Shown one piece after another: positions 35,801 through 62,142 of a stretch of DNA of 64,000 nucleotides (positions are counted from its first letter, which is position 1; each line of letters starts with the position of its first letter). The stretch comes from Mytilus trossulus (taxonomy: Eukaryota): assembly GCF_036588685.1 (NCBI RefSeq), contig NC_086378.1, positions 1,364,001-1,428,000 on the forward strand. Direction: 5' to 3'. A program made the translations under genes and the position numbers. Below the pieces are notes generated by a model that saw nothing but the letters and a program-made list of their open reading frames with translations, was not told where the DNA came from and did not search any database.

Positions 35801-38800
35801 AATCAAAACTCCAAAAATCAATCCCAACCTTTCTTTTGTGGTCATAAACATTGTGTCAAAATTTCATAGATTTCTATTAACTTAAACTACAGTAATAGTG
35901 CGAAAACCAAGAAAATGCTTATTTGGGCCCTTTTTGGCCCCTAATTCCTAAAATGTTGGGACCAAAACTCCCAAAATCATTACCAACCTTTCTTTTGTGG
36001 TCATAAACCTTGTGTTAAAATTTCATAGATTTCTATTCACTTTTACTAAAGTTAGAGTGCGAAAACTAAAAGTATTCGGAGGACGACGACGACGCCAACG
36101 CCAACGTGATAGCAATATACGACGAAATTGTTTTCAAATTTTGCGGTCGTATAAAAAGGGTAGGGGGAGTCTGTTCTTCGACCATATAGAGATAATACCT
36201 TTCGTTTTTTAAAATTAAAACCCAAAAAGGGGGAGGGATCTGTTCTTGGACCATATAGAGATGTGTTTTTCATCTGATCATAAAGGGTTTGAACTGGTTT
36301 TTAATCAAACCTTTATTAGTATTGCTTAGGCTAAAATGTTAAGATGTTTAAAGGTTGGGAAGCAGTATTTATATTCAATTAGTGTCTGTATAAATCATAA
36401 AACAGATAAAATAGCAGGTAAACTTCCTTGAAGAGATACTCAGTCACTGTATTGAAATTAACAAATAACAATTAGATATAAAATTCAATATTTGTCATGA
36501 ACAATTTATGTATCCCTATTCAAGTCTAAGCTTCAAAGGAAAAATGAATGACAGGATCATGAATGCACCACAAAAAAAAATAAGACTGAATTCTGGAACG
36601 ACTTCTCAGAAATTTGTCAAAATTGAAAGGTAGCTAGTCTTCAAGGAACTTATGTATAATTAAGATTGTGTCAAAATTTGGTAAGGAGTTGCAAAAGCAT
36701 ATGTAAGTAATGACTCTACTTACTCAGACAGAGGGACAGATGGATAGTGAAAAACCATCATGCACCTGTCTTCAAATGCAACTGGCTTTAAATGAAAAGT
36801 TCTCTCCCTTACATCTGAATATGTGAGATTAAGCAGAGAGAGTTCATCTAAAATTGAATTACTGTAAATTCAGAAATTATTTAATATAAAAAAAAGATGT
36901 GGTTTGATTGCCAATGAGACAACTCTCAACAGGAGATCAAAATGGCATGGAAAATAACAACTATAGGTCATCATATGGCCTTGCATTTATTATCTGGAAA
37001 AAAGAGAAAAATCTGCATACACATGTATGCATCAGATATCAGAAGGTGAGTTCTTATTATTGCGATACTCACCAAATCGTATTATTCGCAATAACTTCTG
37101 AACTAACAGTAAATAGCTGAAGCAATGGATACTGTAAACCAATTTATTTTCCCGGATACTTTATTTCCGGTTTATGCCAAGCTAGTCAACTTCGCGGTGA
37201 TTAAATTCGTAATTTTCTTATTTACTTAATGTAGTTTGATAGGGAAAGATCCAAGTTATTCCTTTTCGTGACGATTTAATTTCGCGTTATTTTTCTACTC
37301 GTGAAAGTCAAGAAAGTAAATAGCTCGCAGAATTTAGTTGGTTTACAGTAATCAAATTACAACGTTTGTTGTCAATCTTACCTCTTCTTCTTCTAAGTAA
37401 CTTGACAGTACGTCCATTGTAGATATCTGTTCTTTATTCAATAACCTTCTCCCTCCTTCTATTATGGCAAGATAAGAAAATCGTAACTGATCAGCCGTCT
37501 GTATAAGTCCCATTCTATAATATCTCATGTCTAACACCATCTTACGTATATCTATACCATTCATATGTTCTTGATTTTCAATCTAAATAAATGTTATATT
37601 TCTTTTAGTCATCTTTTCTACTAACATGCATGCTATTTTACAGTGTGTTTTTTATGTTGTGATGTTACACTATATTTTCAGATAAGGGTGAAGGTTTGTT
37701 ACCATTAAAACATTTAAAACTGCTGCAATTGTATGCACCTGTCCTAAGTCAGGAATCTGATGTAGTTTTCGTTTGTTGATGTGGTTCATAAGTATTTTTT
37801 ATTTCTAGTTTTTTGTATAGATTACCCAGTAGACTTGATTTTCCTGTTTGAATGGTTTTTGATGAGTAATTTTGTGGGCCCTCTTTAGCTTGCTGTTTGG
37901 TGTGATTGAAGGCTCTGCGTAAGGACTGTATTTTGACCAATAATGGTTTACTTTTACAAATTGCGACTTGGATGGATAGTTGTCACATTGGCACTCATAC
38001 TACATCTTCTTATACACAGGCAATTTTTTCCAACATGTGTTTCATGTTTGTGCTCATCACGTGTGACCAACGTTTTGTTCACATTGTGCTCATAATGTGA
38101 ATATTACGTTTCTGCTCGTTTCATGTTGTACTCACGTTGTGTGGACAACATGAATATCACGTGATTCTCATATTAAAATCACGTTGGAAAATATTGCCTG
38201 TGTATCTAAGTCACTGATGTATGATCTTGATCATAGCTATTATTTCAGACAATAATTTGACCTTAGCTCCATTTCATAATACAAAGTTTGCAATGGTTCA
38301 AAAGTCAAACTGATCACATTATTACCTATGACAAACTATTTGTGTGTGTCCACACTGTTCAGATAGTAATATATGTATCTACAGATTTGATAAAACTGAA
38401 TTGATCCATCTAATCATACTCACTATAACAAGTACAGAGTCAACCAAGCAGAAAGTTCCAGATCGACCAATTCCAGCGCTACAGTGTACAATACAGGGTC
38501 CTGAATCAGGCTCTAAACCACCAGATTCTCGTACAGCCATTAGAAAGTTCAGAAATGCTGTCGGTGAAGTAGGCACGCCAAAATCTGGCCATGTGACATA
38601 ATTAAAATGTAAAATTTCTCTTGTTTCATTTGTCTAAAAAATAAATTTAACATTTTTTGACCCAGTAAAACATGGGTGCATTACATAGTCTTCTAAAAGG
38701 TAGAGAAATTAAGTTTTTCTTGCTGATATAAATCTTGTCAACACTCAGTGAACACTGAAAACAATTACCACAAAAGCCTTATTTGTTTTTAGTTGTATAT

Positions 38801-41800
38801 TAATATAACTGAATACTAGGGGGAAAATAGCTTGAGACCAATAAATAATAGTCGATGTGTACACTGTGAACACATTCATTTATTCATTTGTATTGTTTAA
38901 TCATTTATCTTTTATGACCCTTATGATCATCAAGTACTTTTACTATTTATCTGATACATTAACAATTTTATGGAGTCTATGATGTTTTATAAAGCATGTA
39001 AATGTCAAAAAGAATCCACTTTCTTGCAGATGATGAACAAAAATACTAGAAAATATAATATTCTGATCTTTTAAACCAATTTCTGTTAAAAAGCACTTTC
39101 CCAACCTCATCATAATAATCCTCATTTTCTTTGGAGACAGAGAATTACACTACTTTTATGTTTTTTTCATATTTAAGACGTCTTAACTTTTTCATATTAG
39201 TTCGTTGAAATAAGAAATGAAATTGATACTTTTAAAAGTTAAAATATTTATTATCAAAACTTAAAACAATATTAAAAGAAAAACATGGATATGGGGTATC
39301 CATCCATGACTCCAAAACAGTTCATACACAGCAAGAAAAAAAAAAAAAAAGCAAACAAAAAGCAAAGGAATGACACTTTTATTGATGTTCTTAATTTCAA
39401 TGTCACAGTGAGGACAACACGGAGTAAAAAATACTCTCACCTAACTGCAAGATTAAGATGGCCCCTAAGTCAATTACAAGAATGCTAAAATTTATTCACT
39501 TCAACTCGCCATGGTCTTACTCACCTGCATATCTTCAATCTCTAACGTCCTGACTATATAGTAGTTACACGATCTTTCCTCTAATAATGTTATCTTTAAC
39601 TGTACATCTTCATAAACCATTTCTTCATCATCACCATAATTCTCACCTAATGGCCAATACTGATGACATTTTCTCTGAAAAATTAATGTTAAAAGTTGGT
39701 TTATTAACTGTCTATTTTTGCAAGCTTTGCTCAAGATAAATTGTATAAAATTAATATGCATGACTTTTTGGTCAAATTTCAACCAGACATTTTTAAAAAG
39801 ATTTTTAAAACCAAATATTTCTCATCTTTTAAAGAAAAAAAGTTTTTTATATTTAAAAATTCTAATATATATGTTTTGATTGCACTGATGTGTTTGAATG
39901 TACGTTTTATATTTTATGTCGCCTGTGGAAATGTCATAATTAAATATGTGTAAATAACTGTTTTATTTATGTGCCCTATTTTGAATAGTTGATGTGAAAA
40001 GTGCCCTTTTTGTAAAAAAAAAAATACCATGCCCTTATTCAGTTCTAATGAATTATTGTTTTAAATTTCAACCAGAAAGAGACTGTGATGGACATGGAAG
40101 AAATTACATCAGCTGGAATGTGCATACACCATTCTGAAGTTTTCTGAAAGGACATTTGGTCAAGTATAGCAGTGTTCTCCCCAGGATTTTTTGGATAGCG
40201 CTGTGGTAAGAGCGTAATTTTCGACAATTCTCAGTAACTTTATCGCGGCGTGCGGTTTGTTTGTTATCAATTTGTTATGTGTTTTTATTATATCATGCTG
40301 TTGATGTTTCCTCTTGTTATGATGTCCTTGTCATGCTCATGGAAGTTTACCCCTTAATGAGGCTTTGTTTGTTAAATGACATGTCATTGTCTGGATATAG
40401 AAGAAGAGTTTTTTTTTCTCCATTGTAAATTCATATATTAAATCCTCATACTATCTATGTATAAAACTGAAGGAGAAGTCTTTTTTCCATGATGGATCTT
40501 CACCAGACTGCCTGTGCCAAGATTTCTTAGCACTTTCAGGTAATGTTGCAGAACATGTAGGACCAACAATAAAGTCATTGTCAGTTTCTGTTTGGTTTTG
40601 TAACCAACTGTAGCAGTGTACTGTTTATCTTACGACGTTTGACAGGAATTGACATTTTTTAGCATAAAAAGTTCTCATTTTTATGACCTATATTTAAATA
40701 GCTTTATCCAAGCTGGACATCGAGAAAGTAAATTTCTCAAGTCGTATCAGCTTGAGGTTTGTTTTTCTAATCATATCCTCTCAAATTGTTATCAAATGGT
40801 AGAATTTCTGACTAAACAATTATAAGTTCGAATAGGGGATAATTAATAACTTAAAGACTTGCTCATTTTCGGGGTTTGTATGGATAGTAAACCTGTCAAA
40901 TAATTTGGAACAAACCCCTGTGTAAGCTGTGTTTGATCGTTTTTAAAATCAAAGTTTGTTCAAAGTTCATTAAACAAGTTTGTAAGTGACGTCAGGAAAT
41001 GCGGTCAATTCAATTCATTTCATCTCATTCATATATGCCTCTATATTTTCTTTAAATTAAAAAAATAGATGTCAATGTTGAAATCTTTGTTTATTTTGAT
41101 CTGTCAAATACGCCATTTTGTAAAATTCATTATAATAATAATAATAATAAATTCTTTATTTAAAGAGGGTAAACTCAGTTAGTTACAATAAACTAATCTT
41201 CCCTGAACTGGTATTAGACAGGTCCCGTGGAGTTACTTTAACAAAACGGAAATAATTCATTCAAAAATTGTAAACCAGTCAATCACGTGATCCCAAAGTG
41301 AAAAATAAGCGGGAAATTTGAAAAATACAAAAAAAAAATATAGCGACGCGATTGCATTGGATAGCGACGCGGTCATTGCAATAGGACAGCGGGGAATTGC
41401 AATAGCACTGAAAAGCACTGTGCTAAAATGGCTTTGGGAGAACACTGCAAGTAAAGATCCCTTCAATAAATTTTAAACCAGAAAATTGGAAACAGGGTCA
41501 AGACATTAAGTCAATTAGACGTTGAGGTTTGAACTTACAGAACCACTTTCTATGACTTTGTTTAACATAACTACAGCTTTACTTTTCTGTTCCCAAACCA
41601 TCTGCCAAAAATGTCCTGAGGTGTGTTCTAATGGACCCTGAAAGTATAAAATAATTATAAGGTCCAGACCATCTAACACAAATTTACTGATGCATGATCT
41701 AATGGACCCTGAAAATATACAAAAAACTTAAGGTCCAAAACATCTGCTAGAAATGTAATAATGCATGACCAAATGGACCAAGAAGAGAAAATAAAAATAA

Positions 41801-44800
41801 TTTATATTATACTGTTCAAATCATCTGTATTGTGATGGAACTAGGAAACAACAGGATCTTCAAGATGGACTCTTAACTGAATTTACATCTGTAAGGGTTC
41901 TTTAAGAGGGCCCATGAGGATCAGATAAATGGTTTATGTAAGGAACCATTTAAACTAGATGGGTGGGAAGTTATTATTTTCTTTGTTTTGTTTAGGCAAA
42001 GATGGATATAAAACACACGGAGATAAAGGTGTTAATATTACCTGAGCAAGTATATAATTTCTATTAGCTTCAGGAACAGGTAAGTAACAGGCATTGATAT
42101 AATCCTCCTCGCCTTTCTGTAACTTGACTCGGCTGTGGTCATCTAAAATACATAAAAGTTCACATCATCACATAATATACCAATAATACATGTACACAAT
42201 AAAACAAAATAGCTTATCTTTGTTTAATTTGTATGATATCATGATGCTGGCAGAATACACAACTTGAATGTTTTGGAAATTTAACACCTTGCCTCATTTT
42301 TAGCAATGGTTAACCTAATGATGTTTGCAAAATATTTTGTTTGGTCTGTGTTTTCTTTGTTTTTTTTAACAGGGTTACTTTTACAAACTGTAACTTGGAT
42401 GGAGAATGATCTCATTGGCACTCATACCACCTCTTCTTATATCTATTAAGTTTAACATACACTTGATTTCAAATATGCCATCCAGTTAAATATCTTAATG
42501 GACATATAAAATTTGAAGCATAAAACATTTATAATAACCGAACTACACTATGACATCAATATATCATCCTTGTAGAAATCCCGTTAGAATTTACGATTAA
42601 ACTTTAAAAAGAAGATAAGGTATAACGTAAAATTTGATAAGTTTAGTGACTGGAGTAAATAAATCGCCTATTAAATATGAACATGCTGATTGCCTGATAG
42701 CAAAGTCACCAGTTTTTCATGGGTTTTTTTCATTTAATGTGTGCCATAATTTTTTTTTTAAAGTTTTCATTATTTCTAAAACAAACTTGTAAGTTCTTAC
42801 AATGTAAATGAGTTTAACCCCACCACATTTTGTATGTGCATGTCCAGAGTCAGGAGCCTGTTATGTGGTTGTTGCTGTGTAATATATATTCTTTATTTTG
42901 TACATAAATAAGGCCCTTAGTTTTCTCTGACATTTGCAATGCCAATTGCTGAAGGCTTTAAGGTGACTTAAAATTGTTAATTTCCGTATCATTCGGTCAC
43001 TTTAGAGAGTCGTCTCATTTATAATCATACCATAACTTCTTATTTATATATTGTCAACTACTTTTTCTAATATGCTTAACTTGCATGTTATTCAAATTTT
43101 ACTGGTGTTTAGAATAATATGGGTAAAGGGAGACTATTCATTTCAGGATATCTAATTTTAAACTATAAAACTAAATGTGCCAGTACTTTAAAAAAAAAAA
43201 AAAAAAAACCAGGGCTGTGACCAATACTTTTATAGGTTCCAGTCTCAGTTGGAGTAGAAGTATACATGTAGAATAAAGTTGTATATATTGGTATTTGCAT
43301 AAAACCACTTAAATTTAAAAGATATCAAATTTATCACCTGACATGTTAGGCCAGGATTTTTTAATTTGTTGGTTTACGGATCCGCCGACCCGATTTTGCT
43401 GATTCTTAGAATAAAAATAAAATTGACTTTTCATGCTTTTTTATTCCCGCCAACCCAAACAAATACATTATCCCTGAAAAATAATTAAATTCTTCTTTTT
43501 CTATGAAATGAAATGCATGAATCACTAACAAAATTGATAACAGTTACACTCTCTATTGTGAAAAAATAAAACTTCCAGTTTACGTTTCTAAAAATAGACA
43601 AATCAATTATAACTGACCTTGAAATGTCGTTTACGCAAATAATTTTGCGGAACGAAATCTGCGTTTAAAACCCATTACACAATAAGTTCGTTTCCCTTAT
43701 ATGTCATCAGTCTGTAAGATTCATAATCTCATAGAAATAGACATGTCCAAATGTGGACAGGTGGAAAGCACCTTGGAAGTAAAAGTTCTGAATATAAACC
43801 AAGTCATTTAGAAATTTCTTGTTTCATGGATAATAAAAAAAAATATATCGTCCATTTGGATTAAAAACGGGAATGCATGACACAAGATTAACCCGATATT
43901 CTCGTTTTTTTCCCTGGACGAGTCTATTACGTTTTTGACACGTGTGTTGAAACTTATTTTCGTACGACGTTTTTTACATTTTTTTCTTTATCAGTTTTCG
44001 TTTTTGAAGATCATTACTCACCAAGTTTTCTGGAATTGATTAAGAGCTACGCGAATTTGTTTTTCTTGTTTGTGAAAAGACGATTTAATTTCGTCTTTGT
44101 CTGTGAACACCCCCTTTTTTTTACGGAAAATCATTAGACAATGTCATGTGATATTTATGACAGCTGAGCAACTTCTACTTCTACTATGTAATGACCGCCT
44201 TCAACAAGTTGACCTTTACGTCACTTGTACTGCGCATTGCTTTGTGAAGGTATATATATACAGTGAAATATAACAAATTTGTGATAGTAAACAAAAAACA
44301 AAAACAAAAATTTTACATAGTAATAGTGCATATTTTTAATTTATTAAGAGCAAGAATATTTCATCGAACTAAAATTTGAAATGATGACAAAATAGCTTAA
44401 AAACATTTTGTTAGAAAGGTGAAATGTATATTTATTTTGCATTTTTTTACTGTCTTGAAAGATATTTTTTTTTCTTTTTTTTCCCGACCGACCGACCCGA
44501 CTTTTTCATGGTGAAAATCCGTAAACCAACAAATTAAAAAACCGTGGCCTTAATAATCTGTTCATTTAGAACAGATCTAAACTTAAGTAGCTTTATGCAT
44601 ACAGGCCCAGCCCTACTCTAACACTTTTAATTTTGTATGTATATAATAACCATCTGTAAAAATGATTTTCCTAGGATCTTTATATTTTAGAAGCCTGGTT
44701 CACATTGTATTTTGTATTTTCTTCTCGTAAAAAATCCAATGGAAGGTATACTTTACTAGTTGCTACACATGATAGGCAGATGCATCTATATTATGGATAA

Positions 44801-45975
44801 ATATATTTGTATCATCAAATTGTTTAAGCGATCTGTCAAGCTTTTACAATATACAGGGTTCTCCCTAGGAAGTTAAGAGGGTGTGTCATGCACGCGACTT
44901 TACAATTTTTGACATGGTGATTTCTACGTATATGCCCTCCTTGTGCCTTAATTTGGTAAATAACAATTTTCTATTCTATTCTATATTAAACACAGGCATG
45001 CTAATGTAATAACTTATTACATGGGTAAACATCTCTGTAACGGTTCCTGTTTTTATTGGTCGGTTGTTTTGCTTCCTTTGTTGACAGCTCTTCTTCAAAG
45101 GCTATCTCAGCAGCTTCCACCTTAATTTCCTGAAAAAAAATAGTTTGAGTTATTATTAATGTAAAGGTACAAAATCTTTAATTTAGAAATTTTACATACA
45201 ATGTAGGTATAAAATGTATAATTCTATAATTACTTACATCTACTTCATTGATTTTGATTTTTGATGTTTTAACGCCACATTTAAGACCGCATTTAGGCTA
45301 TTTCATGGCATCCAGTTTTTATTGGTGGATCAAGCCAGAGTGCCCCGGAGTAAACCACTGACCTTTGATAGGAAAACTGACAATTCTAGTCAATTAAGAT
45401 TGGAGTCGACTGCACCAACAATAGTGCGCCTTGAACTCACAACCTCAGTGTTGACTGGCAAGTGATTACAGAAGTACAATGTAACTACTTATATATAATT
45501 AGACCACTCAGTCGACAGTACTTCATTTGAACTTTGGTGGATAGTTGTCCTAGTGGCAATCATATCACATCTTGATATTTTCACATTGCTACAAGACTAG
45601 CATTCTGAGCTTGTTTTAAAGTGTTAGTTCATATCTTCAAATAAGAATATTGGCAGTAAGACATGTCACCATAACTATATGTTTATAAATGACATTATGA
45701 TTACTTTCGTCTTCCAGTCGACCAGATTTCATTTATGCTGTTTGCTTAATAGAAAAGCAACAAATACAAATTGCATAGTCTTTGGTTTGACCCAGTCTGT
45801 ATCAAACCCACAAACAGATGTGAACACTGACAACAGTCAACACGTAGCGTCACAAGTCGAGGAACGCGTCGGCCCTTTTATGCTTTATTTGGTATTTCAC
45901 ACAAACCTGATATATAGCAGGCCATATGCCAAATTTATCATACTGCTGTGATTCTTTTTCTATCTCTGATTCCAT
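32686..45975 (-). CDS. PTPN1/PTPN2: Tyrosine-protein phosphatase non-receptor type 1/2-like (PTP1B/TC-PTP co-orthologue), 9 coding exons, 433 aa: join(complement 45907-45975, 45021-45129, 42042-42142, 41539-41637, 39525-39674, 38424-38633, 37382-37582, 33637-33794, 32686-32890)
   Basis: Manual splicing gives 1302 nt in one frame with GT-AG introns. Motifs: [43 protein letters not shown] (WPD loop), [11 protein letters not shown] (P-loop), [12 protein letters not shown] (Q loop), a Pro-rich linker, and a basic plus hydrophobic C-terminal tail. Confidence 0.95.
33637..33794 (-). CDS. PTPN1/PTPN2: PTP exon 8, proline-rich linker (APPKPPTR...EPPPLPPR)
   Basis: Open frame with PxxP motifs like the PTP1B proline-rich region. 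ttgtag acceptor, AG|gtatgt donor (phase 2). Confidence 0.85.
34186..36157. mobile_element. ~2-kb Helentron-like element with two internal tandem arrays, in PTP intron 7
   Basis: Arrays at ~34920-35450 and ~35440-36070, (gac)n microsatellite, terminal tatacgac...gtcgtata hairpin plus A run. Inserted in an A run of a ~70-bp duplicated flank. Confidence 0.6.
37130..37350. mobile_element. MITE (TA-flanked, Tc1/mariner-like)
   Basis: TIR tactgtaaaccaa / ttggtttacagta. A related element lies at 36860-37111. Confidence 0.65.
37382..37582 (-). CDS. PTPN1/PTPN2: PTP exon 7 (..[25 protein letters not shown]..)
   Basis: Q-loop motif. tatttag acceptor, gtaag donor. Confidence 0.95.
38013..38204. mobile_element. 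MITE
   Basis: TIR tacacaggcaat.ttttccaac / gttggaaaatattgcctgtgta. Confidence 0.65.
38424..38633 (-). CDS. PTPN1/PTPN2: PTP exon 6, catalytic exon (WPDFGVP...[13 protein letters not shown])
   Basis: WPD loop and an intact catalytic CX5R signature. tttttag acceptor, gtgagt donor. Confidence 0.97.
39525..39674 (-). CDS. PTPN1/PTPN2: PTP exon 5 (RKCHQYWP...EIEDMQ)
   Basis: KCxQYWP motif. ttttcag acceptor, gtgagt donor. Confidence 0.95.
40170..41447. mobile_element. Non-autonomous TIR DNA transposon, PTP intron 4
   Basis: TIR cagtgttctccc / gggagaacactg. Flanks caagtatag / caagtaaag. Confidence 0.65.
41539..41637 (-). CDS. PTPN1/PTPN2: PTP exon 4 ([33 protein letters not shown])
   Basis: Conserved motifs. 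tttcag acceptor, gtaagt donor. Confidence 0.95.
42042..42142 (-). CDS. PTPN1/PTPN2: PTP exon 3 (YDHSRVKL...DYINAC...YILAQ)
   Basis: Conserved PTP motifs. 101 nt, AG/GT flanks, phase-compatible. Confidence 0.95.
43349..44549. mobile_element. Non-autonomous TIR DNA transposon (PIF/Harbinger-like), PTP intron 2
   Basis: ~33-bp TIRs ggcca.g.tttttt.aatttgttggtttacggat / atccgtaaaccaacaaattaaaaaaccgtggcc, with TTA on both sides. Confidence 0.7.
45021..45129 (-). CDS. PTPN1/PTPN2: PTP exon 2 (EIKVEAAE...[11 protein letters not shown])
   Basis: pTyr-recognition loop NRYRDV. Acceptor tttcag, donor gtaata, ends in phase 1. Confidence 0.93.
45907..45975 (-). CDS. PTPN1/PTPN2: PTP exon 1 ([23 protein letters not shown])
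   Basis: Resembles the PTP1B N-terminus [21 protein letters not shown]. Donor CAG|GTTTGT. Confidence 0.9.
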
Positions 45976-46039
45976 CGACAAACCGTTACATTGACAATAT
46001 TTTGGCTAACTTTGAAAATGTGAACGCACTTGTCCTTTT

Positions 46040-46047
46040 ACTTCCGG
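46040..46047. promoter_or_regulatory. ETS/GABP-type motif ACTTCCGG in the putative PTP proximal promoter
   Basis: Exact ACTTCCGG ~65 bp upstream of the PTP ATG. Position is typical of housekeeping promoters, but the motif is short. Confidence 0.35.
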
Positions 46048-50265: not shown

Positions 50266-50611
50266 TTACATCTCTATATAACCAGGTGAGGATTCAAGTG
50301 AGGGCGTGGCGTACTTGCGTTCCATCTAAAATTGGCAAAGCATGTTTTTTTTTCTCAGCTTGAATAAGAATATTTCGATAATTTTGGTAAATGTGGTCAT
50401 TTTTATATAAAATGTGTCACTCAATATCAATATAGGATCTCGATATATAGGATTGGGTTAAAGTAATAAATGATAAGTTCATTTTATTGAATCTATAAGC
50501 ACACCGAGATAACTACATCAGCCTGTTATGATATCTGTAAAGCACTATCAGCAGATTGGTATAAATAGATTCGCATATTACTTCCTTGTGCAAAGGGCGT
50601 TTATAAGGAAA

Positions 50612-52258
50612 ATGGCGACGTCTATTGACAGTCATGTCGTTGACATAACTACGTGTGCAATTTGTCTGGAGAAACTTAACACTCCAAAGTATTTACCGTG
50701 CTTGCATACATTTTGTGAAAGTTGCCTACGGACATACATAACTGCTATATTTGAGAAAGAGCACAAACAAAGTATTGAATGTCCGGTTTGTAGGACTGAA
50801 GTAATTGTACCGAAGGAAATCAATGCATCTGAAGAATGGGCCAAACTGCTACCATTGAATTTCCTTATCGTTGGACTATTGGAAAAAGAGAAAGTCGAGA
50901 ATCCACAAAAACAATGTATGGTATGTGAACGAATGGAAACAAAATCGGAGGCAAGTTTTATTTGTATTGATTGTTCTGATTTATTATGTTCAAACTGTAA
51001 AAAACACCACAAAGCGAACAAATTGACGTGTGACCACGAAATGAGACAAATTAATGAACTGTCATCGGTCTCTGAATGCTTGAAAACTTTTAAAAACCTT
51101 TGTTCTGAACATAAAGGAGAAGAGCTTAAATTATTTTGTGTCGACCATCAGACTCCATGCTGTTCAATGTGTGTATCAATCAATCATCGCCGATGTGAAA
51201 AAGTTCTTTCCATAGAAGATGCTGCGAAGGAATACGCGACAACTGACAAAGTTACAGATCTGAGAACCCAACTTAGCGAAGTTGATGATGATATAAAAGC
51301 AATCATAAAAGATCGAGCATCTGCAAAGCAAAACATAGACAAGGAGCATAAAGAAAAACAAAATGACCTTGAGACTATATTCAGTGACCTTGTGGCTAAA
51401 ATAAATCATCTCAAAGTCAAACGAGAAGCAGAACTTTTGAAAATATACAACGAGGCAAAAGAAACGATAGACACTTCTATTATAATCTTTCAAAATAAAC
51501 AAAAAAATATAGAAAATGAAAAACAGATTCTAGATGCAGCCGTAAACATGGTAAACATGGCATCCAATGTTCAAGTTATGATAGTAGTCGAAAAGCTGAA
51601 GAAACACTTGGAGGAACATAAACAATTGATTCAAACCAAGGCTAAAGAAAATGTTAATTATGAACTTTCACTGAAAAATGTAGAAAATATTTCAAAATTA
51701 GCTGAAAAAATGGAGAATGAGTGTCAGATTGCATGCAAAGAAACAAACGCATGTATTGAATTGAGTAGCATGACTGTAACGCCTTATGTCTCTGAAATAT
51801 TTAGCGTCTGTCGTTTACAAACAGAAAGTCGTTTTAGTTGGGGGTCGTGTAGTGGTAAAAAAGACGCTATTTGTTTTTCGGTATCAAAGGAAATAGAACT
51901 ATGCGGATTTCTATCATATGTATGTTGCGATGGATTATCGTCATGTGATGTGACCGCTTCAGTTAGAGACGATACAACTGATCTTGTTATAGTGTCAAAC
52001 ACTATAGACAGTAAACTAGCTGAAAATAAAAGGGTTAAAATTGAATTTACAAAACCAGTAAAACTATTAGCTAATAATAAATACCATGTTGTTGTAGTGA
52101 TTAAAGGTCCAGATTGCTATTATGGGATCGGAGGGAAATCTGTAGTAGACAGTAATGATGTAGTGTTTACTTTTAGTCAGTCTGAGTTTAGTGATAATGG
52201 AACAAGTACCAACTCAGGTCAAATTCCTGGATTTTTATTCAAAATTCCTAAGGAATAA
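50612..52258 (+). CDS. TRIM/RBCC-like E3 ubiquitin ligase with C-terminal PHR domain (RING-Bbox1-Bbox2-CC-PHR), copy 1, intact, single coding exon, 548 aa
   Basis: C3HC4 RING (CAIC...LPCLHTFCESC...CPVCR), B-box1 (CMVC...CIDC...CSNCKKHH), B-box2 (CSEH...FCVDH..CCSMC...H), coiled coil, then PHR-like DAICFSVSKEIELCGF...NGTSTNSGQIPGFLF. The likely start is AAAATGGCG at 50612, shared with copy 2; the ORF track starts at 50528. Confidence 0.9.
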   Translation: MATSIDSHVVDITTCAICLEKLNTPKYLPCLHTFCESCLRTYITAIFEKEHKQSIECPVCRTEVIVPKEINASEEWAKLLPLNFLIVGLLEKEKVENPQKQCMVCERMETKSEASFICIDCSDLLCSNCKKHHKANKLTCDHEMRQINELSSVSECLKTFKNLCSEHKGEELKLFCVDHQTPCCSMCVSINHRRCEKVLSIEDAAKEYATTDKVTDLRTQLSEVDDDIKAIIKDRASAKQNIDKEHKEKQNDLETIFSDLVAKINHLKVKREAELLKIYNEAKETIDTSIIIFQNKQKNIENEKQILDAAVNMVNMASNVQVMIVVEKLKKHLEEHKQLIQTKAKENVNYELSLKNVENISKLAEKMENECQIACKETNACIELSSMTVTPYVSEIFSVCRLQTESRFSWGSCSGKKDAICFSVSKEIELCGFLSYVCCDGLSSCDVTASVRDDTTDLVIVSNTIDSKLAENKRVKIEFTKPVKLLANNKYHVVVVIKGPDCYYGIGGKSVVDSNDVVFTFSQSEFSDNGTSTNSGQIPGFLFKIPKE

Positions 52259-54139
52259 TGAAAGTTTTATTAAAAGCTAGTCTTAAGGGCATATGATATA
52301 GTTTTGACCCCGCGGTAATTGTATACGAACATTTAAATACAAGCTATTTTTTTTTTATCTAATCAGGTGAAATATATCAAGTTAATGACAATATTTGTCA
52401 GAATTTAACATAAATGATATCATTGCTAAATATTAGTCTGCTTCAAATATTGACTTATCAAGAAATTGACGATGCGGGTTTGTTGAAAACTGAACTAAAC
52501 AACAAAAATTAAACAGGCACAAGATACTTTATTTCTGGATTGCAACATCAAACCAGCACCTTCAAATGGAGTTGATGTCTGATGCGATAGTTTTACATAC
52601 TTTTGTTTCCATGATTTGCTTGATTTAGATTTGCAGCTTTTAAGGAAACGAATGAAACAGTGACTCGTATGTGTAAGCTTGAAGTATTTTTTTCTCCAAA
52701 TATATAAAAGAAGATGTGGTATGATTGCCAATGAGAAAACGATCCACAAAAGACCAAAATGACACAAACATTTACAACTATAGGTCACCGTACGGCCTTC
52801 AACAATGAGAAAAGCCCATACCGCATAGTCAGCTATAAAAGGCCCCGATAAGACAATGTAAAACAATTCAAACGAGAAAACTAACGACCTTATTTATGTA
52901 AAAAAAATGAACGAAAAACAAATATGTAACACATAAACAAACGACAACCACTGAATTACAGGCTCCTGACTTGAGATCGAAAGTTTTACGCTCGCCATCA
53001 TGATTTGGCTGACCACCTTTGCAGATCTGTGTCACAGATGACAATAGATATATACCACTTGTTTTTCACATGATACCTTTCAATACTCCCTATAATTGTA
53101 TCACTTGATTTAAGCTTATGGAATTGAATTTGCCCCGTTTATATTAACTTATCTCCTTTATTGAATGCAATGAAAATACATTATTATTCGACTTGATTAA
53201 AACAGATGGTATTCAACGTTAACAAGTAAAAAGTAAAAAAAAAAAAAAAAACTCTGAGGAAAATTCAAAACGGAAAGTCCCTTATTCAAAGTCAAAACCC
53301 AAAGCTCAAATACAATAAACCAATGGAGAACATCTGTCATATTCCTGACTTGGAACACGCATTAACGTGACTCGAGATAGATCTGATTTGTTCTAAGGCA
53401 ACTTATTTCAGTGGTTAACAACATGTTTAACCTTCAGTTGTACCTGTCCGTCAGTGGCAATATTCACCTCATCATGAACTTTTTCCCCATTTTCATTAAC
53501 GTGCAAATTTTAAAACAAGAAAAAATAAAATCACAAATATACTAAACTCCTAGGAAAATCCATGTATCGTTGTTGTTATTGTCAGTTTTCACTTTTAACA
53601 ATCTAACGACGGAAGATTGTAATACGTTTCATTTCTATTGCAATACATAGAAAATCAAATTCAATATAAAAAAGAAGATGTGGTATGATTGCCAGTGAGA
53701 CAACTATCTACAAAAGACCAAAATGACACAAACATTAACAATTATAGGTCACCGTACGGCCTTCAACAATGAGAAAAGCCCATACCGCATATAGTCAGCT
53801 ATAAAAGGCCCCGATAAGACAACTCTTTTATGTTTATTATAGCAATTTTGGATTGTTCTCTCGGAAATGTTTTCTGTTATTGTCATGTTATTTAGCATTG
53901 ACGTGGTATGTGTCATAACGTAAACTGCAAGTGAAAACTGCTGTCAACTTTTTGTTTTCAATCATCACTTTTATTCAAATATTGTGTTTACACTATAACA
54001 AATATAGTTATCGCTCTTTGATGAGGCAGTTGTTGAACATCAATACGTTCTTCAAAAATAAGCAATTATGATCTCATATTCAGCATGTTAGTGTTATATT
54101 TATAACTGATGATGTTCCTGACATGACTTTCTTTTCCCA

Positions 54140-54625
54140 ACCATAGATTAGCTGTATTTGGCAGAATTTTTGAGTCCTCAATGCTATTCAACTTTGTACT
54201 TTTATCTGAGCGTCAGTGATGAGTCTTGTGTAGCGAAACGCGCGTGCAGGAAAATTGGTACTGTTAATGTTATTACTAAAACTGAGTCGATGCCTCTGCA
54301 GGTGGACTGTTAGTCTCCCAGGGAAATCACCAGCCCAGTAGACAGTACTTCGGTGCTGGCATGAAAATATGGATTTTTTGTGTTATTAAAATTTGCTGTT
54401 ACAAAATGTTAGAAGTTATTATAAATTGAGGAATGTATCTCCCTCATGCAAAGCTATGATTCCTTCCACATATTTGGCTATATTTTTTTAACCTTCTGGA
54501 TAATAGCTCATCATCTTTTATATAAGCTTTGGATTTCAAATATTTTTGCTACAAGCATCACTGAAGAGACATGTATTGTTGAAATGCGCATCTGGTGTAG
54601 GAAAATTGGTACCGTTAATGTTATA
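54140..54625 (+). mobile_element. Retrozyme-like unit with one degenerate (54210-54246) and one variant (54555-54598) hammerhead, 345 nt apart
   Basis: Homology to the 6821-7332 family. Repeated aggaaaattggtac...gttaatgtta follows each hammerhead. Confidence 0.65.
54555..54598 (+). ncRNA. Variant minimal Type I hammerhead ribozyme
   Basis: GCAUCA-CUGAAGA-GACA uguau UGUU-GAAA-UGCGCA-UC-UGGUGU. Compensatory changes in all three stems relative to the 6875 motif. Confidence 0.75.
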
Positions 54626-55959
54626 GCGGATGTTTGTAAAAATAGTTTAAATATGTTCGTTATAATAGTAAGTTCGTCAATTTGTGTAATTTGAAGGAAT
54701 TTTACGATTTTGAAAAAGACATATTTGCTGTATACTTATCTAAATAAGAAAAGATCATAGATTATTTATTCGTAAAAGTTGAAACAAAAAAAACTCCAAA
54801 TATATTTAAGTCCCACTGGAACGCCTTCTGGCAGACTGGCCGTACAATTATTGATATCGATAGCCGATGACAAACAAAATGAAGTTAAATGATACAGTAT
54901 TATTATACCGGCATAAGTATTGAGGTTGTCCACACTGTTACGGAAATACCTCTATGTATCCTTCCTTGTATATATTGTTCTTGCAAAAGAAAATACGTCT
55001 ACAATTACAAAATCAAAAGCTCAAACATATCAAATGAATGGATACCTACTGTAAAATTCCTGACTTGGAACAGCTATATTCAGTTGCATCAAATTCTATT
55101 ATATTGACAACGATGTATGAACATTCAAACAGACATAAATACAATTATGTGCAGCATAAATGACTTTATTGTACACTGAAAGACTAAATGTTGACTGTAT
55201 TCAGTCTTGTGTTATTATATTTTGTAAATTTAAGAAATATGTAGAAAATGGTCCATATGTGATTATCTAACTTGAAACTCATTTTTATTTTGTAATTGAT
55301 AAGGGGGTGCTACTCCAAGCACATGTTTTAATATCCAGCTTCTTTTCCAAATAGCTGCCAAAGGAAGAACACACAGAAATTTTGACATTCAATTTTTATA
55401 AAATATTTCAATCCTCTCCCCTTCCTACCTTGAAAAGAGGTTACTTGATTGTTTAATTGAGTGAGGACAAACAGAGCAGTATATGGGGCGTTATCTGCTC
55501 CCAAAAGTTGAAATGTTGCACTATTATTCACAAATTTATAGTCAAGGGGAGATAACTCTAAATTGATGGACTTTTCAAAAATTCTATTTCAATAATTGAT
55601 GACATTTGTCTTTTAATTTATTACATAATATGCTCATTGATTCACACTGTAATAAAAGTATTGTATACTTAAATTCATAATTGGTACTTATAATTGTAGC
55701 GTATGCAAATTTTATACATGTATCTTTTGATATGATTGATTTTGAATCATAAACTGTCACATCTTTGGCCTACATCATCATAACATGTGTTAGTTGGTAT
55801 TTTGACTTTAGCGAACCAAAAAAGGTAAAAATATCAAAAATGGGGGTACAGCAGTCAACATTGTGTTATAATATTAATTACTATAAATACAAACAAATAT
55901 GAATCCCAACAACAAACTTATTATGACATGTGACATTCAGTCCTTGAAACACAACATAC

Positions 55960-56630
55960 AAAAATTAAACACGAACCAAACAAAAAACCTGAATGATTTC
56001 GGGTGCTTTTATGTTGGTAAAAAATAATTCATGTAAATTAAAACCCGATGATTAGAATAATTCGGTAGGTAAAATTCGAGGAAAAAATTATGAGTTTTAT
56101 GTTTCGACAATCAGAAAATATCCGTCGTCATCTATGAAACACATTCAGTAATGGTCAATCAATCAACTCGTAATTGCGTTGAAGGGATGATTTCAACTTT
56201 ACAAATTATAACGTTTGGTTTGAAAGTTTACCTGTAATCAGCAACCCTTTTGCATGGACATCATCATACAAAATGCAAGCTCTGACATATCATATCAACG
56301 GAGAGATAGTTACTCCTACGCTGACGATTCTAAATGTTGCTACATAGAAATGGAAGGTTACCGATTTGGAAGCTGAAACCATCTCTTTTGTCGCAAAAGT
56401 TTGTTCTCAACCACCCCTTGTTGTCATTTTTTTTTAGATATAAGTCAAGATATGAGAAAATCTTTACTATGTCTGTTGAATTCTTTATTTTATTTTCGGT
56501 GAGATAGATGTGTTTAATATGGTCACCCATCTGGTAATTACATTCAGTAAAATGAAATCTTATCTATAGCGGAACTATGAAGTCAAAGGATAATGATATA
56601 TTCTTTTCATTCTTCCTTAGAAGCCCATAT
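55960..56630 (-). mobile_element. Degenerate Penelope-like RT relic
   Basis: ORF 56330-56530 SYLDLYL...LRTNFCDKRDGFSFQIGNLPFLCSNI matches the same RT region as 59701. Confidence 0.65.
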
Positions 56631-56748
56631 CTTAAATATTGAACCACATTGCTAAGATTAACATTTTTAATCTTTTTAAAAAATAATTGATAGATTATAA
56701 ATTTAATATAGTATATAGTTATCATAGATACCAGGCTTATAATTTAAA

Positions 56749-56792
56749 ACGCCAGACGCGCGTTTCGTCTACATAAGACTCATCAGTGACGC
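56749..56792 (-). ncRNA. Minimal Type I hammerhead ribozyme (intact), in retrozyme fragment ~56720-56945
   Basis: Reverse complement reads GCGUCA-CUGAUGA-GUCU uaugu AGAC-GAAA-CGCGCG-UC-UGGCGU. Confidence 0.82.
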
Positions 56793-57106
56793 TTAGATCA
56801 AAATAGATATATAGCCAAACAAGTACAAGATGAAGAGCATTGAGGACTAAAATTTCCAACACGTTGTGTCAAATTCGGCTAAGGTATGCCTGGAATGAGA
56901 ACATCCTTAGTATTTCGAAAAATTCATACTATTGTAAACAGGAAGTATCTCATTCAAGAGTGGGTTAATGTTATCAATGATTTATTAAATCTATAAGCAG
57001 ACATGAGATACCACCATCAGCCTGTAATTTTATGATATTTATGAAGCGCTATCAGCAGATTGGTATACATTGATTTACATTACTTCCTTGTGCAGAAGGT
57101 GCTAAA

Positions 57107-58739
57107 ATGGCGACTTCTATTGACAATCATGTCGTTGACATAACTATGTGTGCAATTTGTCTAGAGAAACTTAACACTCCGAAGCATTTACCATGCTTGC
57201 ATACATTTTGTGAAAGTTGCCTACGGACATATATTACTGCTATATTCGAGAAAGAGCACAAACAAAGTATTGAATGTCCGGTTTGTAGGACTGAAGTTAT
57301 GGTACCGAACGAAATCAATGCATCTGAAGAATGGGCCAAACTTCTACCATTGAATTTCCTCATCGTTGGACTATTGGAAAAAGAAAGAGTCGAGAGCCCA
57401 CTAAAACAATGTATGGTATGTGAAAGAATGGAAATGAAATCGGAGGCAGGTTTTATTTGCGTTGATTGTTCTGATTTATTATGTCAAAACTGTAAAAAAA
57501 CACCACAAAGCCAGCAAAACCTCGTCTGATCACGAAATAAAACAAATTAATGAACTATCATCGGTTTTTGAGTGCTTGAAAACTTTTAAAAACCTTTGTT
57601 CTAAACATAAAGGAGAAGAGCTTAAATTATTTTGTGCCGACCATCAGACTCCATGTTGTTCGATGTGTGTATCATTCAATCATCGCCGATGTGAAAATGT
57701 TCTTTCCATAGAAGATGCTGCGAAGGAATATTCGACATCTGACGAAGTTAAAGATTTGAGAACCCAACTTAGCCAAGTTGATGATGCTGTCAAAGCAATC
57801 ATAAAAGACCGAGTATCTGCAAAGGGAAATATAGAGAAGGAATATGAACAAAAGAAAAAAGACCTTCAGATTATTTTTTGTGACCTTATTGCCAAGATAA
57901 ATGATATCAAAGTCAGACGAGAAGCAGAACTATTGAAAATTCACAATGAGGCAAAAGAAACAATAGACGCTTCTATAACTATCTTTCAAAATAAACAAAC
58001 AAATATAGAAAATGAAAAACAAATTCTAGATGCAGCCGTAAACATGGCATCCAATGTTCAAGTTATGATAGAAGTTGAAAAGTTGAAGAAACACATAGAA
58101 AAACATAAACAATTGATCCAAACCAAGGCTAAAGAGCATCTTGATTATGAATTTTCACTGAAGAATGTAGAAAATATTTCAAAATTAGCTGAACAAATGG
58201 AGAATGAGTGTCAGATTACATGTAAAAAGACAAACACATGTATTGAACTGAGCAGCATGACTGTAACGCCTACTTTCTCGGACATATTTAGAGTCTGTCG
58301 TTTTGACACAGTTTATAGTGGTTGGACAGTCGGTGGTGTAAAAAAAGACGCTATCTGTTTTTCGGTATCAAAGGAAATAGAACTATGCGGATTTCTATCG
58401 TATGTATGTAGTGATGGATCATCGACATGTGCCGTGACCGCTTCAGTTCAACACGAAAACAACGATCTAGTTGTAGTGACGAGCACAATAGAGAGTAAAT
58501 TGGGTGAAAATAAAATGGTTAGAACTGATTTTCCAACACCAGTTAAGCTTTTAGCCAATAAAAAGTACAATGTTGTTGTAGTGATGAAAGGTCAGTCATA
58601 TTGTTATGGGGACAATGGGAAACTTGTATTAGACATTAACGATGTTGTGTTTACGTTTGAAAATTCTCCGCTTAGTGAAAATAGCACAGACACGGGACGT
58701 GGCCAAATTCCTGGATTTTTATTTAGAATTCCTGTATAA
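57107..58739 (+). pseudogene. TRIM-PHR copy 2, full length but with a +1 frameshift in the A run at 57494-57500 (pseudogene or sequencing error)
   Basis: ORFs 57107-57529 and 57462-58739 join into a copy-1-like protein if one A is removed: TGT-A7-CAC here versus TGT-A6-CAC at 50996-51007. Confidence 0.8.
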
Positions 58740-59214
58740 ATCTGTTTATTGTTACAAATCGTTCACTTCCAAATTGTGATGTCATAAAAACATAAGTAAT
58801 AACTCTAGTAGGCTACCTTTTTGTTTATAAGAAATTAATGATGAGAGCCAAAAAATAAACATACCTCGAATAGTTTTATTTTTACCCTAATATTTAACAT
58901 TACTTCTTATTGTTTATTCAGAGTTTTGATAACAATATGTTTCCAAGGGATGTCTCAAAGGGAAACCTATACTTTTTGGTTATCAAAAGCACAAGTCGAA
59001 GACAGACAGACAGCTATAAACCAAAACAACTACACTCAATAGTGAACAATATGCTATTCGAAGGCTAGCGATCATAGATTACGTTTATAAAGTTCTGGCA
59101 AAAATATGGAGGCACCGATTTAACACAAAGTACAGCATCTTCAAAACCTTCTGACTTTTAAAATAAAGGCTTAATTCCTGTGTACAAAACTTAGATTTCT
59201 TTTCGAAAAAAACA

Positions 59215-59572
59215 TGTATTTTCTTATCCCAGAAATAGATTACCGAAGCCGTCTTTGGCATAACTTTTTTGTTATTTTGGGTCCTCAATGCTGTTCAACT
59301 TTGTACTTTGTTTGGCATTATAACTGTTTTGATCCGAGCGTCACCGATGATAATTCTGGTACATTTGATAGCTATTTACACCACTTGGTCGATGCCACTG
59401 CTTGTGGACGTTTCGTCCCCGAGGATATCACCAGCCCAGTAGTCCGCACTCCGTAGTTGACATGAATATCAATTATATGGTCATTTTTATAAATTTCCTG
59501 TTTAAAAAACTTTGATTTTTTTTGAAAAATCTAAGGATTTTCTTATCCCAGGAATAGATTACCGTAGCCGTA
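59215..59572 (+). mobile_element. Retrozyme-family monomer with deleted hammerhead
   Basis: Family body with terminal repeat ttcttatcccag..atagattaccg. Hammerhead truncated at gagcgtcaccgatga (~59336-59350). Confidence 0.65.
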
Positions 59573-59700
59573 TGACGACAAAAAAATCTATTTTTTTCAA
59601 ATACAGCTATGATAATCTATTGCTGAGGTAGATAAAGTATTTCAAAAATTCAAAGTTTATAAACAGTAAATATATTTTTGACAGCCGGGCATCTATTATA

Positions 59701-60316
59701 GACAAACTTTACGACAAAAGAGATGATTTCAGCTTTCCAATTGTGAACTTTCCATTTCTAAGTAGCACGATTCCAGCAGCACCTGCATACTGGGTATATA
59801 TCTCACAATTGATACGATATTCACGTGCTTGAATTTCTTATCATGATTTTCTTGATAGAGGGTTACTGCTCACAAGGGAGCTATTAAACCAAGAGTTCCA
59901 AATGGTGAAGATGAAATCATCCCTTCGTAAATTTTACGGACGCCATCACGAGTTGGTTGACCGTTAGGGAATAACCGTTTCACAAATGATATCGGATATG
60001 TTCCTTACGTCGTAACTATAATCCCCTTCACTTTCATGAATGTGACCCACCGAATTAGACTATTTATCGGATTCGTAATCACATAAGCAACATGACGGGT
60101 CCCACATGTGGAGCAGGATCTGCTTACCCTTCCGGAGTACCCGAGATCACCTCTAGTTTTTGGTGGGGTTTGGTTGTTTATTCTTTAGTTTTCTATGTTG
60201 TGTCATGTGTACTATTGTTTTTCTGTTTGTCTTTTTCAATTTTAGCCATGGCGTTGTCAGTTTGTTTTAGATTTATGAGTTTGACTGTCCCTTTGATATC
60301 TTTCGTCCCTCTTTTA
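59701..60316 (+). mobile_element. Penelope-like retroelement RT C-terminal relic plus 3' tail
   Basis: Translates DKLYDKRDDFSFPIVNFPFLSSTIPAAPAYWVYISQLIRYSRA*ISYHDFLDRGLLLTRELLNQEFQMVKMKSSLRKFYGRHHELVDR*, a PLE-type RT thumb with stops. Confidence 0.75.
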
Positions 60317-60769
60317 TAGGATTTTCAAAGTTCATTTTACGTCTTTCCCTTTTAATTAGATTTGATTATAAACGGATTGTCTTTAAACAAGTTGATAATG
60401 AAACAAATCACAAAAACGAACAATACTTAACCAGTGTAAAGATAAAATTTAATACGCATGCCGATATGCTGTTGAAAAGAAAAGTCGAAATCAGAATTTT
60501 TTTTCATACGTTGAAGTTAAAGATAAAACATATCTACAGCTTCAGTTTTGGTACGATTGACAACTTTTCATTTAAGTATTCACAATCAAATGTGTTTTAT
60601 GTGACAGTGACACACATTACACGATATAAGCAAATTTAACCGACAAAATGTTCAAATTCGAGATTATTATAGCTTTTCAAAAAAGACAATTTCCTCGCAC
60701 TGGTTCGACAAGGAGAAGAAATCAATGGTAACACTTTTGCTTATTCGTCTTTCATAGTTATCAGTGGAT

Positions 60770-62142
60770 CGTAGGCAATTTTTATTTGTGTTGATTGTTA
60801 TGATTTATTTTGTAGATCTATAAAAAAAAAAACCAACACCACAATACAGCGAGCAAAAACTCGTGTCATGACAAAAAATGACAAATCATTGCACTGAACA
60901 TAAACAATAAGAACTAAAATTATTTTGTGTCGACCACCAGACTCCATGTTGTTCGATGTGTGTATCAATCAATCATAGGCGATGCGTTCTTTCCATTTGA
61001 ATATATAAGTCTATATATATGTTCTTTTATATGTTATCTCATCTGAAATTTCGAAATTTTATGCATTTTTAATGCATTATTTTATTTTTATGTATATTAT
61101 TGTTTTTACTTCCATGTCACTTTTGTACTTGGATGGTTTTGTGAGAATAAACTATCTATCTATCATAGAAGATGCTGCGAAGGAATATGTGACAACTGAC
61201 AAAGTTAAAGATTTGAAACTCGGAATTGTGGATTAGGATGTAAAAGCAATCATAAAAGATCGAGCATCTACAAATGAAAATATAGAGAAGGAATATGAAC
61301 AAAAGAAAAAAGACCTTTAGATTATTTTCTGTGACCTTGTTGCCAAGATAAACGAGATCAAAATCAGACGAGAAGCAGAACTTTTGAAAACTTACAACGA
61401 GGCAAAAGAAACAATAGACACTTCTATAATTATCTTTCAAAAGAAACAGAAAAATATAGAAAATGAAAAACAAATTCTAGACGCAGCCGTAAACATGGCA
61501 TCCAATGTTCAAGTTATGAAAGAAGTTGGAAAGTTAAAGAAACACTTAGAAGGACATAAACAATTGATTCAAACCAAGGCTAAAGAGCATCTTGATTATG
61601 AACTATTACTGAAGAATGTAGAAAATGTAGAAACAAACGCATGTATTGTATTGAGCAGCATGACTGCAACGTCTACGTTATCAGAAATATTTAGCCTATG
61701 TCGTTTTGAAACAATTTATAGTGGTTGGGGAGTCGTTGGTGTATATAAAGATGATATTTGTTTTTCGGTATCAAAAGAAATAGAACTATGCGGATTTGTA
61801 TCGTAGGTATGTCGCGATGGATTATCGACCTGTGAAGTGACCGCTTACGTTAATGACGATGCAACAGATATGATTGGGGTGAAAGATACTATAGACAGTA
61901 AAGTAGCCGAAAATAAAATGGTTAAAATTGAATTTCCGACACCAGTAAAGCTATTAGCTAATAAAAAGTACCATGCTGTTGTAGTGATGAAAGGTCCAAC
62001 GTGTTATTATGGCGAAAGTGGATAAACTGTAGTAGACAGTAACGGTGTAGTGTTTACTTTTGACAATTCCCCATTCTTTGATAACGGAACATCTACCACA
62101 GTAGGTCAGATTCCTGGATTCTTATTAAGAATTCCTGTATAA
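60770..62142 (+). pseudogene. TRIM-PHR copy 3, decayed pseudogene (RING lost, stops, frameshifts, insertion)
   Basis: Homologous to copies 1 and 2 from B-box1 to ...GQIPGFLLRIPV*. In-frame TAG at 61318-61320 and 61804-61806, indels, and an AT-rich insertion at ~60997-61163. Confidence 0.88.
60997..61163 (+). mobile_element. 5'-truncated retroelement 3' end inserted into TRIM-PHR copy 3
   Basis: Interrupts ttctttccat|agaagat. Ends in AATAAA plus (CTAT)n tail, with cat repeated at both junctions. Confidence 0.5.

Follow-up and report, generated by a model that had tools for sequence, protein, structure and literature searches.

A PHR domain captured by a TRIM family of Mytilus: predicted ubiquitin ligases with a plausible immune role

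What kind of protein arises when a PHR domain stands at the end of a TRIM protein, where did that domain come from, and what might it serve? These questions are raised by a 64,000-nucleotide stretch of the Mytilus trossulus genome (hereafter the window; G000:C6:1364001-1428000, G000 being the source genome), in which an initial annotation had described a tandem array of intronless genes for proteins with RING, B-box and coiled-coil (RBCC) domains and a C-terminal PHR domain. Our analyses show that copy 1 of these genes encodes an intact RING/B-box 1/B-box 2/coiled-coil protein with a true PHR tail. We propose that it belongs to a mussel-lineage family of TRIM E3 ligases that probably uses the captured PHR beta-sandwich to bind targets, possibly of a non-self or immune nature.

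Copy 1 (P0001; 50612..52258), which like all of its features lies on the plus strand, is an uninterrupted single-exon coding sequence of 548 residues, with its ATG at 50612 and its stop at 52258. The C3HC4 RING (residues 15-60; 50654..50791) was recognized by PF00097 with an E-value (E) of 4.8e-09 and 36.4 bits (cut-off 21), and is flanked by D11, E20 and the linchpin R61. It is followed by B-box 1 (residues 102-143; 50915..51040), which matched the ANCHR-like PF22586 at E 2.9e-04, below the Pfam cut-off, and whose Cys/His ligand columns are kept across the homologue alignment, and by B-box 2 (residues 161-194; 51092..51193), which matched zf-B_box PF00643 above the cut-off (E 3.7e-06). The coiled coil (residues 212-344; 51245..51643) is represented by helices 212-314 and 320-344 in an AlphaFold2 model built from a 13-sequence alignment (mean predicted local distance difference test score, pLDDT, 63.7; 80-95 over most of the PHR domain and low over the RING). 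In structural comparisons, the B-box and coil portion matched KAP1, TRIM72 and TRIM5alpha at Z 7.0-7.6, which is weak taken alone, and the TRIM72 match of the model had E 2.9e-04 in Foldseek.

The C-terminal PHR domain (residues 395-546; 51794..52249) was delimited by Pfam, sequence-to-structure searches, Foldseek, VIA-align and junction profiles. PF08005 covered residues 405-544 (E 6.8e-28, 98.6 bits, cut-off 23.6), and the model contains an all-beta domain at residues 397-544. In VIA-align, this tail matched the PHR structures 3hwj, 3no8 and 3gbw at Z 23.7, 23.6 and 22.4, the next entry reaching Z 10.4, with root-mean-square deviations (rmsd) of 1.4-1.9 Å over 145-149 residues; the best structural match was the second PHR of MYCBP2 (rmsd 1.4 Å, Z 23.7). 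The three solved structures were matched by sequence as well (E 8.7e-14 to 9.2e-10), and Foldseek agreed. Neither a BTB nor a BACK domain was found in the Pfam scan of copy 1. Pfam domains, model helices and fold thus bear out the RBCC module and PHR tail of the initial annotation, including the fold it expected of the C-terminal part. A lectin or carbohydrate-binding reading of the domain was dropped, as the likeness is at the level of the fold only (Z 6.5-10.4).

The description of the genes as intronless holds for the coding region, while the gene as a whole likely contains an intron in its 5' untranslated region. A pyrimidine tract and an AG stand immediately 5' of the ATG in copies 1 and 2 and in L003 and L005, and two contigs of one sample open with 26 and 7 letters that do not match, the match starting at 50604, which together point to a probable splice acceptor at 50580..50607 (+). 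Contigs from sequencing runs that carry the spliced intron of a neighbouring gene (4/4 runs) cover the open reading frame of copy 1; as these runs show that spliced intron, the cover fits transcription, with the runs taken as RNA by guess and the contigs readable for neither level nor tissue.

The architecture appears to be restricted to a single lineage as far as we have searched. RING and PHR were found together in 16 of the 108 protein-collection matches to the whole copy 1 protein, and PHR in none of the 19 such matches named from other bivalves. The PHR profile yielded 21 matches among 8,000 scored, namely 18 named Mytilus, copy 1, one TRIM without a species name and one BTB protein. In a wide profile search, seven among the best 150 of 15,403 matches (down to 179 bits) were TRIM-PHR proteins or pieces thereof, named Mytilus or without a species name; two further members of the best 150 were unrelated triple-PHR proteins, and a distant, independent TRIM-PHR fusion could lie below 179 bits. 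A search from the deepest species-unlabelled member gave four matches and added a Mytilus lineage, P0298, for which no ortholog was found in G000 (best match 43%). Named TRIM-PHR proteins come from five species, M. californianus, M. coruscus, M. edulis, M. galloprovincialis and M. trossulus, the architecture is kept in lineages down to 36-42% identity, and the deeper members without a species label (P0018, P0113 and P0115) may be from other mussels. In the collections searched, there was no sign of TRIM-PHR in oysters, scallops or clams. The range of the family therefore seems to be Mytilus at least, and the lineage specificity initially suggested holds to this extent, all species-named relatives being Mytilus. 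Apart from this family, P0223 and P0240 (1,800-1,900 residues) carry three PHR domains together with ankyrin-like helical repeats.

In the literature searched, a protein that couples RING, B-box and coiled coil to a PHR tail appears undescribed, although captured-tail TRIMs themselves are known. Titles and abstract openings yielded no paper on RING/B-box plus PHR, two records with the string 'trim-phr' aside (on neuronal m6A and the worm germ line). PHR is mentioned 0 times in PMC3503706 and PMC3137616, and the Figure 3 legend of PMC10445537, which lists TRIM C-terminal domains, does not name it; the sole 'phr' string in that paper is 'phred'. This list agrees with the earlier statement that canonical TRIM classes do not end in PHR. 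Such a tail fits none of the classes C-I to C-XI (COS, FN3, PRY/SPRY, PHD-BROMO, MATH, filamin/NHL, ARF, TM and uncharacterised), and TRIM-PHR would default to the catch-all class C-V. No cluster of at least 50 members with RING and PHR was found in a protein atlas, which is evidence neither of novelty nor of absence. The sequences are already public under generic names, such as TRIM56-like, TRIM2-like and MID2.

The origin of the fusion was approached through phylogenies and the junction. All 28 TRIM-borne PHRs were placed on one side of a branch from 38 BTB-type and 6 other PHRs (support 99/96), and after MYCBP2-like and BTBD1/2-like PHRs of G000 had been added, in a 34-row subset, 9/9 TRIM-borne PHRs still grouped (98/94). 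The BTBD1/2-BTBD3/6-MYCBP2 group (90/91, unstarred) does not include them, and they share a polytomy with expanded BTB-BACK-PHR genes; set against BTBD and MYCBP2, they form a separate single clade. At the junction, a profile built from TRIM relatives with propeller tails extends over copy 1 up to residue 402, the TRIM-derived body and linker end at residue 394-402, and a BACK-PHR profile matches from residue 395 only, no BACK remnant being found. As TRIM homology extends to 394-402 and PHR starts at 395 without BACK, the PHR was grafted onto an existing TRIM, replacing a propeller-like tail of 250 residues, rather than a BTB protein having gained a RING. This reverses the direction initially envisaged, in which RING and coiled coil had replaced BTB-BACK as the carrier of PHR. 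The term 'propeller' for these relatives is a reading of repeats with weak Pfam support (SBBP 0.0097 in P0126; NHL in P0146). Taken together, the sequences indicate that the TRIM-borne PHR has one origin, in one fusion near residue 395. The PHR probably came from one among the many expanded BTB-BACK-PHR genes, in which it is contained within one exon; this exon would have been joined at the DNA level to a single-exon TRIM, displacing the propeller-like tail.

The BTB-BACK-PHR genes are themselves expanded in G000 (L009-L096), where they account for most of the 62 matches of a PF08005 family search and form clusters on C5, C12 and C14. In the expanded genes a single exon encodes BACK and PHR, and the PHR loops are fast-evolving. 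In vertebrates, the number of BTB-BACK-PHR genes is given as four (bioRxiv 10.1101/575910).

In the RBCC tree, the PHR forms fall in a 24-row clade (100/99) together with propeller-, low-complexity-, MATH- and RanBP-tailed proteins (MATH in P0021; RanBP1 or RanBP zinc-finger tails in P0121, P0123-P0125 and P0178). Monophyly of the PHR-bearing rows was not recovered in this tree (4 changes) and was not rejected (approximately unbiased test, p 0.126), so that replacement of PHR by MATH or RanBP2 tails is possible. Close relatives of the RBCC part, joined to RanBP2/Nup358-like pieces with RanBP zinc fingers and RanBP1 domains, were observed in four Mytilus species, including G000 at C6:81459374-81460042 (L112) and near C6:81509013; many are annotated plainly as RanBP2 or NUP358, and they recall zebrafish ftr52. 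A contig labelled RanBP2 was induced by polyinosinic:polycytidylic acid, poly(I:C) (PMC7773633). The mussel TRIM-MATH protein P0021 and P0048 with related oyster proteins occupy different places in the tree, suggesting separate MATH captures.

How many genes make up the family in this genome? A PHR search of G000 gave 27 matches, nine on TRIM frames (L001-L008 and L011) and 18 on BACK-type frames, and the larger PF08005 search added no TRIM form among the loci read. Of the nine TRIM-PHR sequences, five are intact and one is decayed; the other three carry one indel apiece, always within an A-run. The flanks of L003 and L005 are collinear (87-96% over ~25 kb), and L007 (C42) and L008 (C3:9863129-9864750) have a common 4.1 kb upstream block that is 96.8% identical; both pairs are therefore probably alleles on uncollapsed haplotypes, which would bring the gene number to ~7, not 9. 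In the same genome, C15 resembles an uncollapsed haplotype of C6:13.8-14.85 Mb, inflating copy counts. Between L007 and L008, divergence in the PHR (dS 0.49, dN 0.24; synonymous and nonsynonymous divergence, respectively) far exceeds that in the RBCC part (dS 0.15-0.19) and in the 4.1 kb upstream block, a pattern that may reflect balancing selection or paralog exchange. In one contig, the 5' part matches copy 1 and the 3' part copies 2 and 3, and in some proteins, such as P0006, the nearest copy changes along the length, as recombination could bring about.

Within the window, copy 2 (57107..58739, +) has 87% nucleotide identity to copy 1 and is complete but for an extra A in the A-run at 57494-57500, its sole frame-breaking lesion; a named gene model, P0007, bridges this site, and the extra A is possibly an assembly error rather than a real lesion. 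Copy 3 (60775..62142, +) is dead: it is without a RING, its B-boxes are broken, and insertions, deletions and four in-frame stops occur within the part read, with the coil and PHR still recognisable. The 60 kb beyond the right end of the window and the 20 kb beyond its left end yielded no further copy, nor were extra tandem copies found beside L003 or L005. The tandem array thus stands as three plus-strand copies and no more, of which one is dead and one frameshifted. The birth-and-death evolution proposed at the outset is retained for copy gain and loss (the dead copy 3; the P0298 lineage without an ortholog in G000), but frameshifted copies should not be counted as deaths, as the single indels are in A-runs in 3/3 cases and two of them are apparently in alleles.

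The two halves of the protein differ in their substitution patterns. Over three close pairs, the ratio of nonsynonymous to synonymous substitution rates (dN/dS) was 0.27 (0.20-0.35) for RBCC and 0.62 (0.46-0.84) for PHR, with non-overlapping intervals, and the PHR ratio was 2-4 times that of RBCC in each of the three pairs. The most variable PHR loop by entropy and dN/dS, residues 401-416 (51812..51859, +), had a ratio of 1.75 (confidence interval 0.88-4.68); among 16 close homologues, mean entropy was 0.35 bits for the RING, 0.96 for PHR and 1.91 for this loop. In codon site models, a class with omega 1.2-1.35 took up 15% of PHR sites with 9 sequences and 29% with 5; in the five close copies, ~29-33% of PHR sites had omega 1-1.35, many of them in loops 401-417, 501-510 and 522-535. 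For RBCC, the one-ratio model M0 gave omega 0.15 (8 sequences), with no weighty class above ~0.5 and a top class of <1% of sites. Subject to the small number of sequences and to possible recombination, the RBCC scaffold is, on these codon data, conserved under purifying selection, while the PHR tail is loose.

TRIM proteins dimerise through the coil and bind their target with the tail, and clustering activates the RING. By analogy, the coiled coil of TRIM-PHR would form an antiparallel dimer bearing two PHR domains, and target binding would cluster the RINGs, with help from the B-boxes, and switch on ubiquitin transfer. That the protein is a working ligase with PHR as its target binder is a prediction in which we place high confidence. 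All 30 RING+PHR proteins collected have an acidic residue at -4, a Glu at +5 and the Arg linchpin, the equivalents of E12, D21 and R55 of TRIM21 in a register taken from the residue spacing in PMC6776665, not from an alignment. According to that paper, a tri-ionic anchor (E12/E13/D21) and the linchpin R55 serve Ube2N in TRIM21/TRIM5, with E12 and D21 contacting Ube2N and E13 contacting ubiquitin. With two of the three anchors and the linchpin Arg, lysine 63-linked (K63) ubiquitin chains are possible, not assured. PHR itself has been proposed as a substrate module (PMC1257465), a proposal that gains support from the binding of TOP1 by the C-terminal region of BTBD1/2.

As to the target, we favour an immune or non-self one, a prediction that we hold with somewhat better than even confidence, and a role in immunity is plausible. 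The most likely targets would be non-self proteins inside the cell or proteins of immune signalling, and paralogs may differ in their PHR loops because the bound targets differ and change. Genes with B-boxes are enriched among dispensable mussel genes (false discovery rate 3e-13; PMC7653742, Table S52) and a 'TRIM56' contig rose 3.61-fold with poly(I:C) (PMC7773633), neither being assignable to the TRIM-PHR family.

Several points weigh against this proposal. The equivalent of TRIM21 E13 occurs in 0/30 RING+PHR proteins; PHR is not the substrate binder in every case, Plzf being bound by the BTB domain of Btbd6, whose PHR has a part in promoting nuclear import (bioRxiv 10.1101/575910); and the PHR donor varies with the tree, L010 being sister at 94/65 in one and a polytomy standing in the other. 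Positive selection on PHR was not significant in M8 against M8a (p 0.54 with 9 sequences, 0.19 with 5) or in M1a against M2a (p 1 and 0.44); only M7 against M8 was significant (p 0.016 and 0.003), which is explained by neutral sites. None of the three dN/dS pairs is free of a frameshifted sequence, and two of the pairs are probably allelic. In a control of seven BTB-BACK-PHR pairs, dN/dS was 0.23 for BACK, 0.41 for PHR and 0.56-0.58 for PHR loops, the same direction, so that fast PHR loops are not peculiar to the TRIM form.

These selection results lend weight to the strongest alternative, namely that the same ligase mechanism serves a non-immune job, with PHR binding host proteins in turnover, stress, germ line or development and with the loop diversity reflecting relaxed constraint in a redundant, often-duplicated family. 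The PHR site class is statistically inseparable from neutral, the BTB-PHR paralogs show the same loop pattern, and known partners of PHR proteins are host proteins, such as TOP1, which is bound by the C-terminal region of BTBD1/2 (PMC1257465, PMC3002306). However, purifying selection acts on RBCC while PHR evolves faster in every pair, entire paralog lineages have been gained and lost between species, and the excess PHR divergence of the probable alleles L007/L008 hints at balancing selection or paralog exchange; we therefore regard a non-immune job as doubtful, if a serious contender. A second alternative, which we consider quite improbable, is that PHR serves as a decoy for, or regulator of, the host BTB-BACK-PHR/Cullin3 system, or as a module for localisation, with the TRIM competing for adaptor partners and ubiquitinating them without Cullin3. 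The large BTB-BACK-PHR expansion, the nuclear import promoted by the Btbd6 PHR and the co-localisation of human BTBD1/2 with TRIM5delta bodies (PMC3002306) speak for it, but TRIM-borne PHRs have no close BTB-PHR sister, so that no particular host adaptor is being tracked, and their loops differ between copies. That TRIM-PHR is mostly a non-functional by-product of shuffling or an annotation or assembly artefact is very improbable, since, although four of the nine sequences in G000 are broken as assembled, this is contradicted by the single intron-free open frame of copy 1, the full-length homologues named from five Mytilus species, the architecture retained in distant lineages and the purifying selection on RBCC.

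A ligase that uses its PHR to bind immune or non-self targets thus remains our preferred reading. More tentatively, the RBCC part may be a chassis with exchangeable tails (propeller, PHR, MATH and RanBP2 fragments), of which the PHR form would be a germline repertoire of intracellular non-self sensors, its PHR loops acting like the variable loops of TRIM5alpha PRY-SPRY.

The surroundings of the three copies contain other features. Head to head with copy 1 on the minus strand is a gene outside the TRIM-PHR family (37489..46045), presumably for a PTP1B-like tyrosine phosphatase from its motifs, whose intron at 45128-45906 is spliced in contigs of 4/4 runs. A reverse transcriptase fragment (RVT_1, 2e-12) lies at 46851-47348 (+), and minisatellites occur at 3690-4113 (47 bp x 9) and 21182-21721 (27 bp x 20). 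Between copies 1 and 2, positions 55513-55816 have contig cover in two runs and are without an open frame. Just to the right of the window is a broken element with a GIY-YIG domain (L058, C6:1429699-1432694), which we take to be Penelope-like, and the next gene to the right is an APCDD1-like exon (L061, G000:C6:1460544-1461167, minus strand; PF14921, 2.3e-49).

With TRIM-PHR, the TRIM family gains a C-terminal class that has been hidden under generic names. PHR ligands are poorly known, and a ligase that is encoded by one exon, brings its own RING and varies naturally in its loops offers a direct test of PHR substrate choice and of the surface involved. If the family is immune, mussels would have reached a TRIM5-like design with a different fold, and if the sensor reading is true, PHR would be an immune-recognition fold with its unknown binding face marked by the loops. 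As tail capture by invertebrate and fish TRIMs is already known, the surprise is limited.

Compared with known systems, TRIM-PHR is close in layout to class C-IV TRIMs (TRIM5alpha, TRIM21 and the fish finTRIMs), with which it shares RING, B-boxes and coiled coil followed by a beta-sandwich, multigene turnover, a faster-evolving tail, the linchpin Arg and two of the three Ube2N anchors; it differs in having PHR instead of PRY-SPRY, a one-exon coding region, no third anchor and site models without significant positive selection. The tail swaps of zebrafish ftr52 (RanBD-CypA), primate TRIMCyp and Branchiostoma TRIM-MATH likewise came about in one lineage each, with an existing TRIM taking on a new tail (PMC3137616, PMC3503706), and the mussel clade has its own MATH and RanBP2-like captures, but here the captured domain is PHR, and the outcome is not one gene but a family with several deep lineages. 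The BTB-BACK-PHR Cullin3 adaptors (BTBD1/2/3/6) also end in a PHR, with the fold seen here (31% identity and rmsd 1.6 Å for BTBD2), predicted as a substrate module (PMC1257465). TRIM-PHR, in contrast, is without BTB or BACK and has its own RING, so that no cullin should be needed. Single-exon 'TRIM56-like' TRIMs of molluscs, with a propeller-like tail, are the source of the RBCC and linker and bear the same database names; in TRIM-PHR, their 250-residue tail is replaced by PHR. In the MYCBP2/Highwire/RPM-1 group, MYCBP2 also combines PHR with a RING-type ligase in one chain, and its second PHR is the best structural match. However, MYCBP2 is a giant protein encoded by many exons, and its two PHRs are internal; in G000 they are intron-split and do not group with TRIM-borne PHRs, whereas copy 1 has 548 residues and one terminal PHR.

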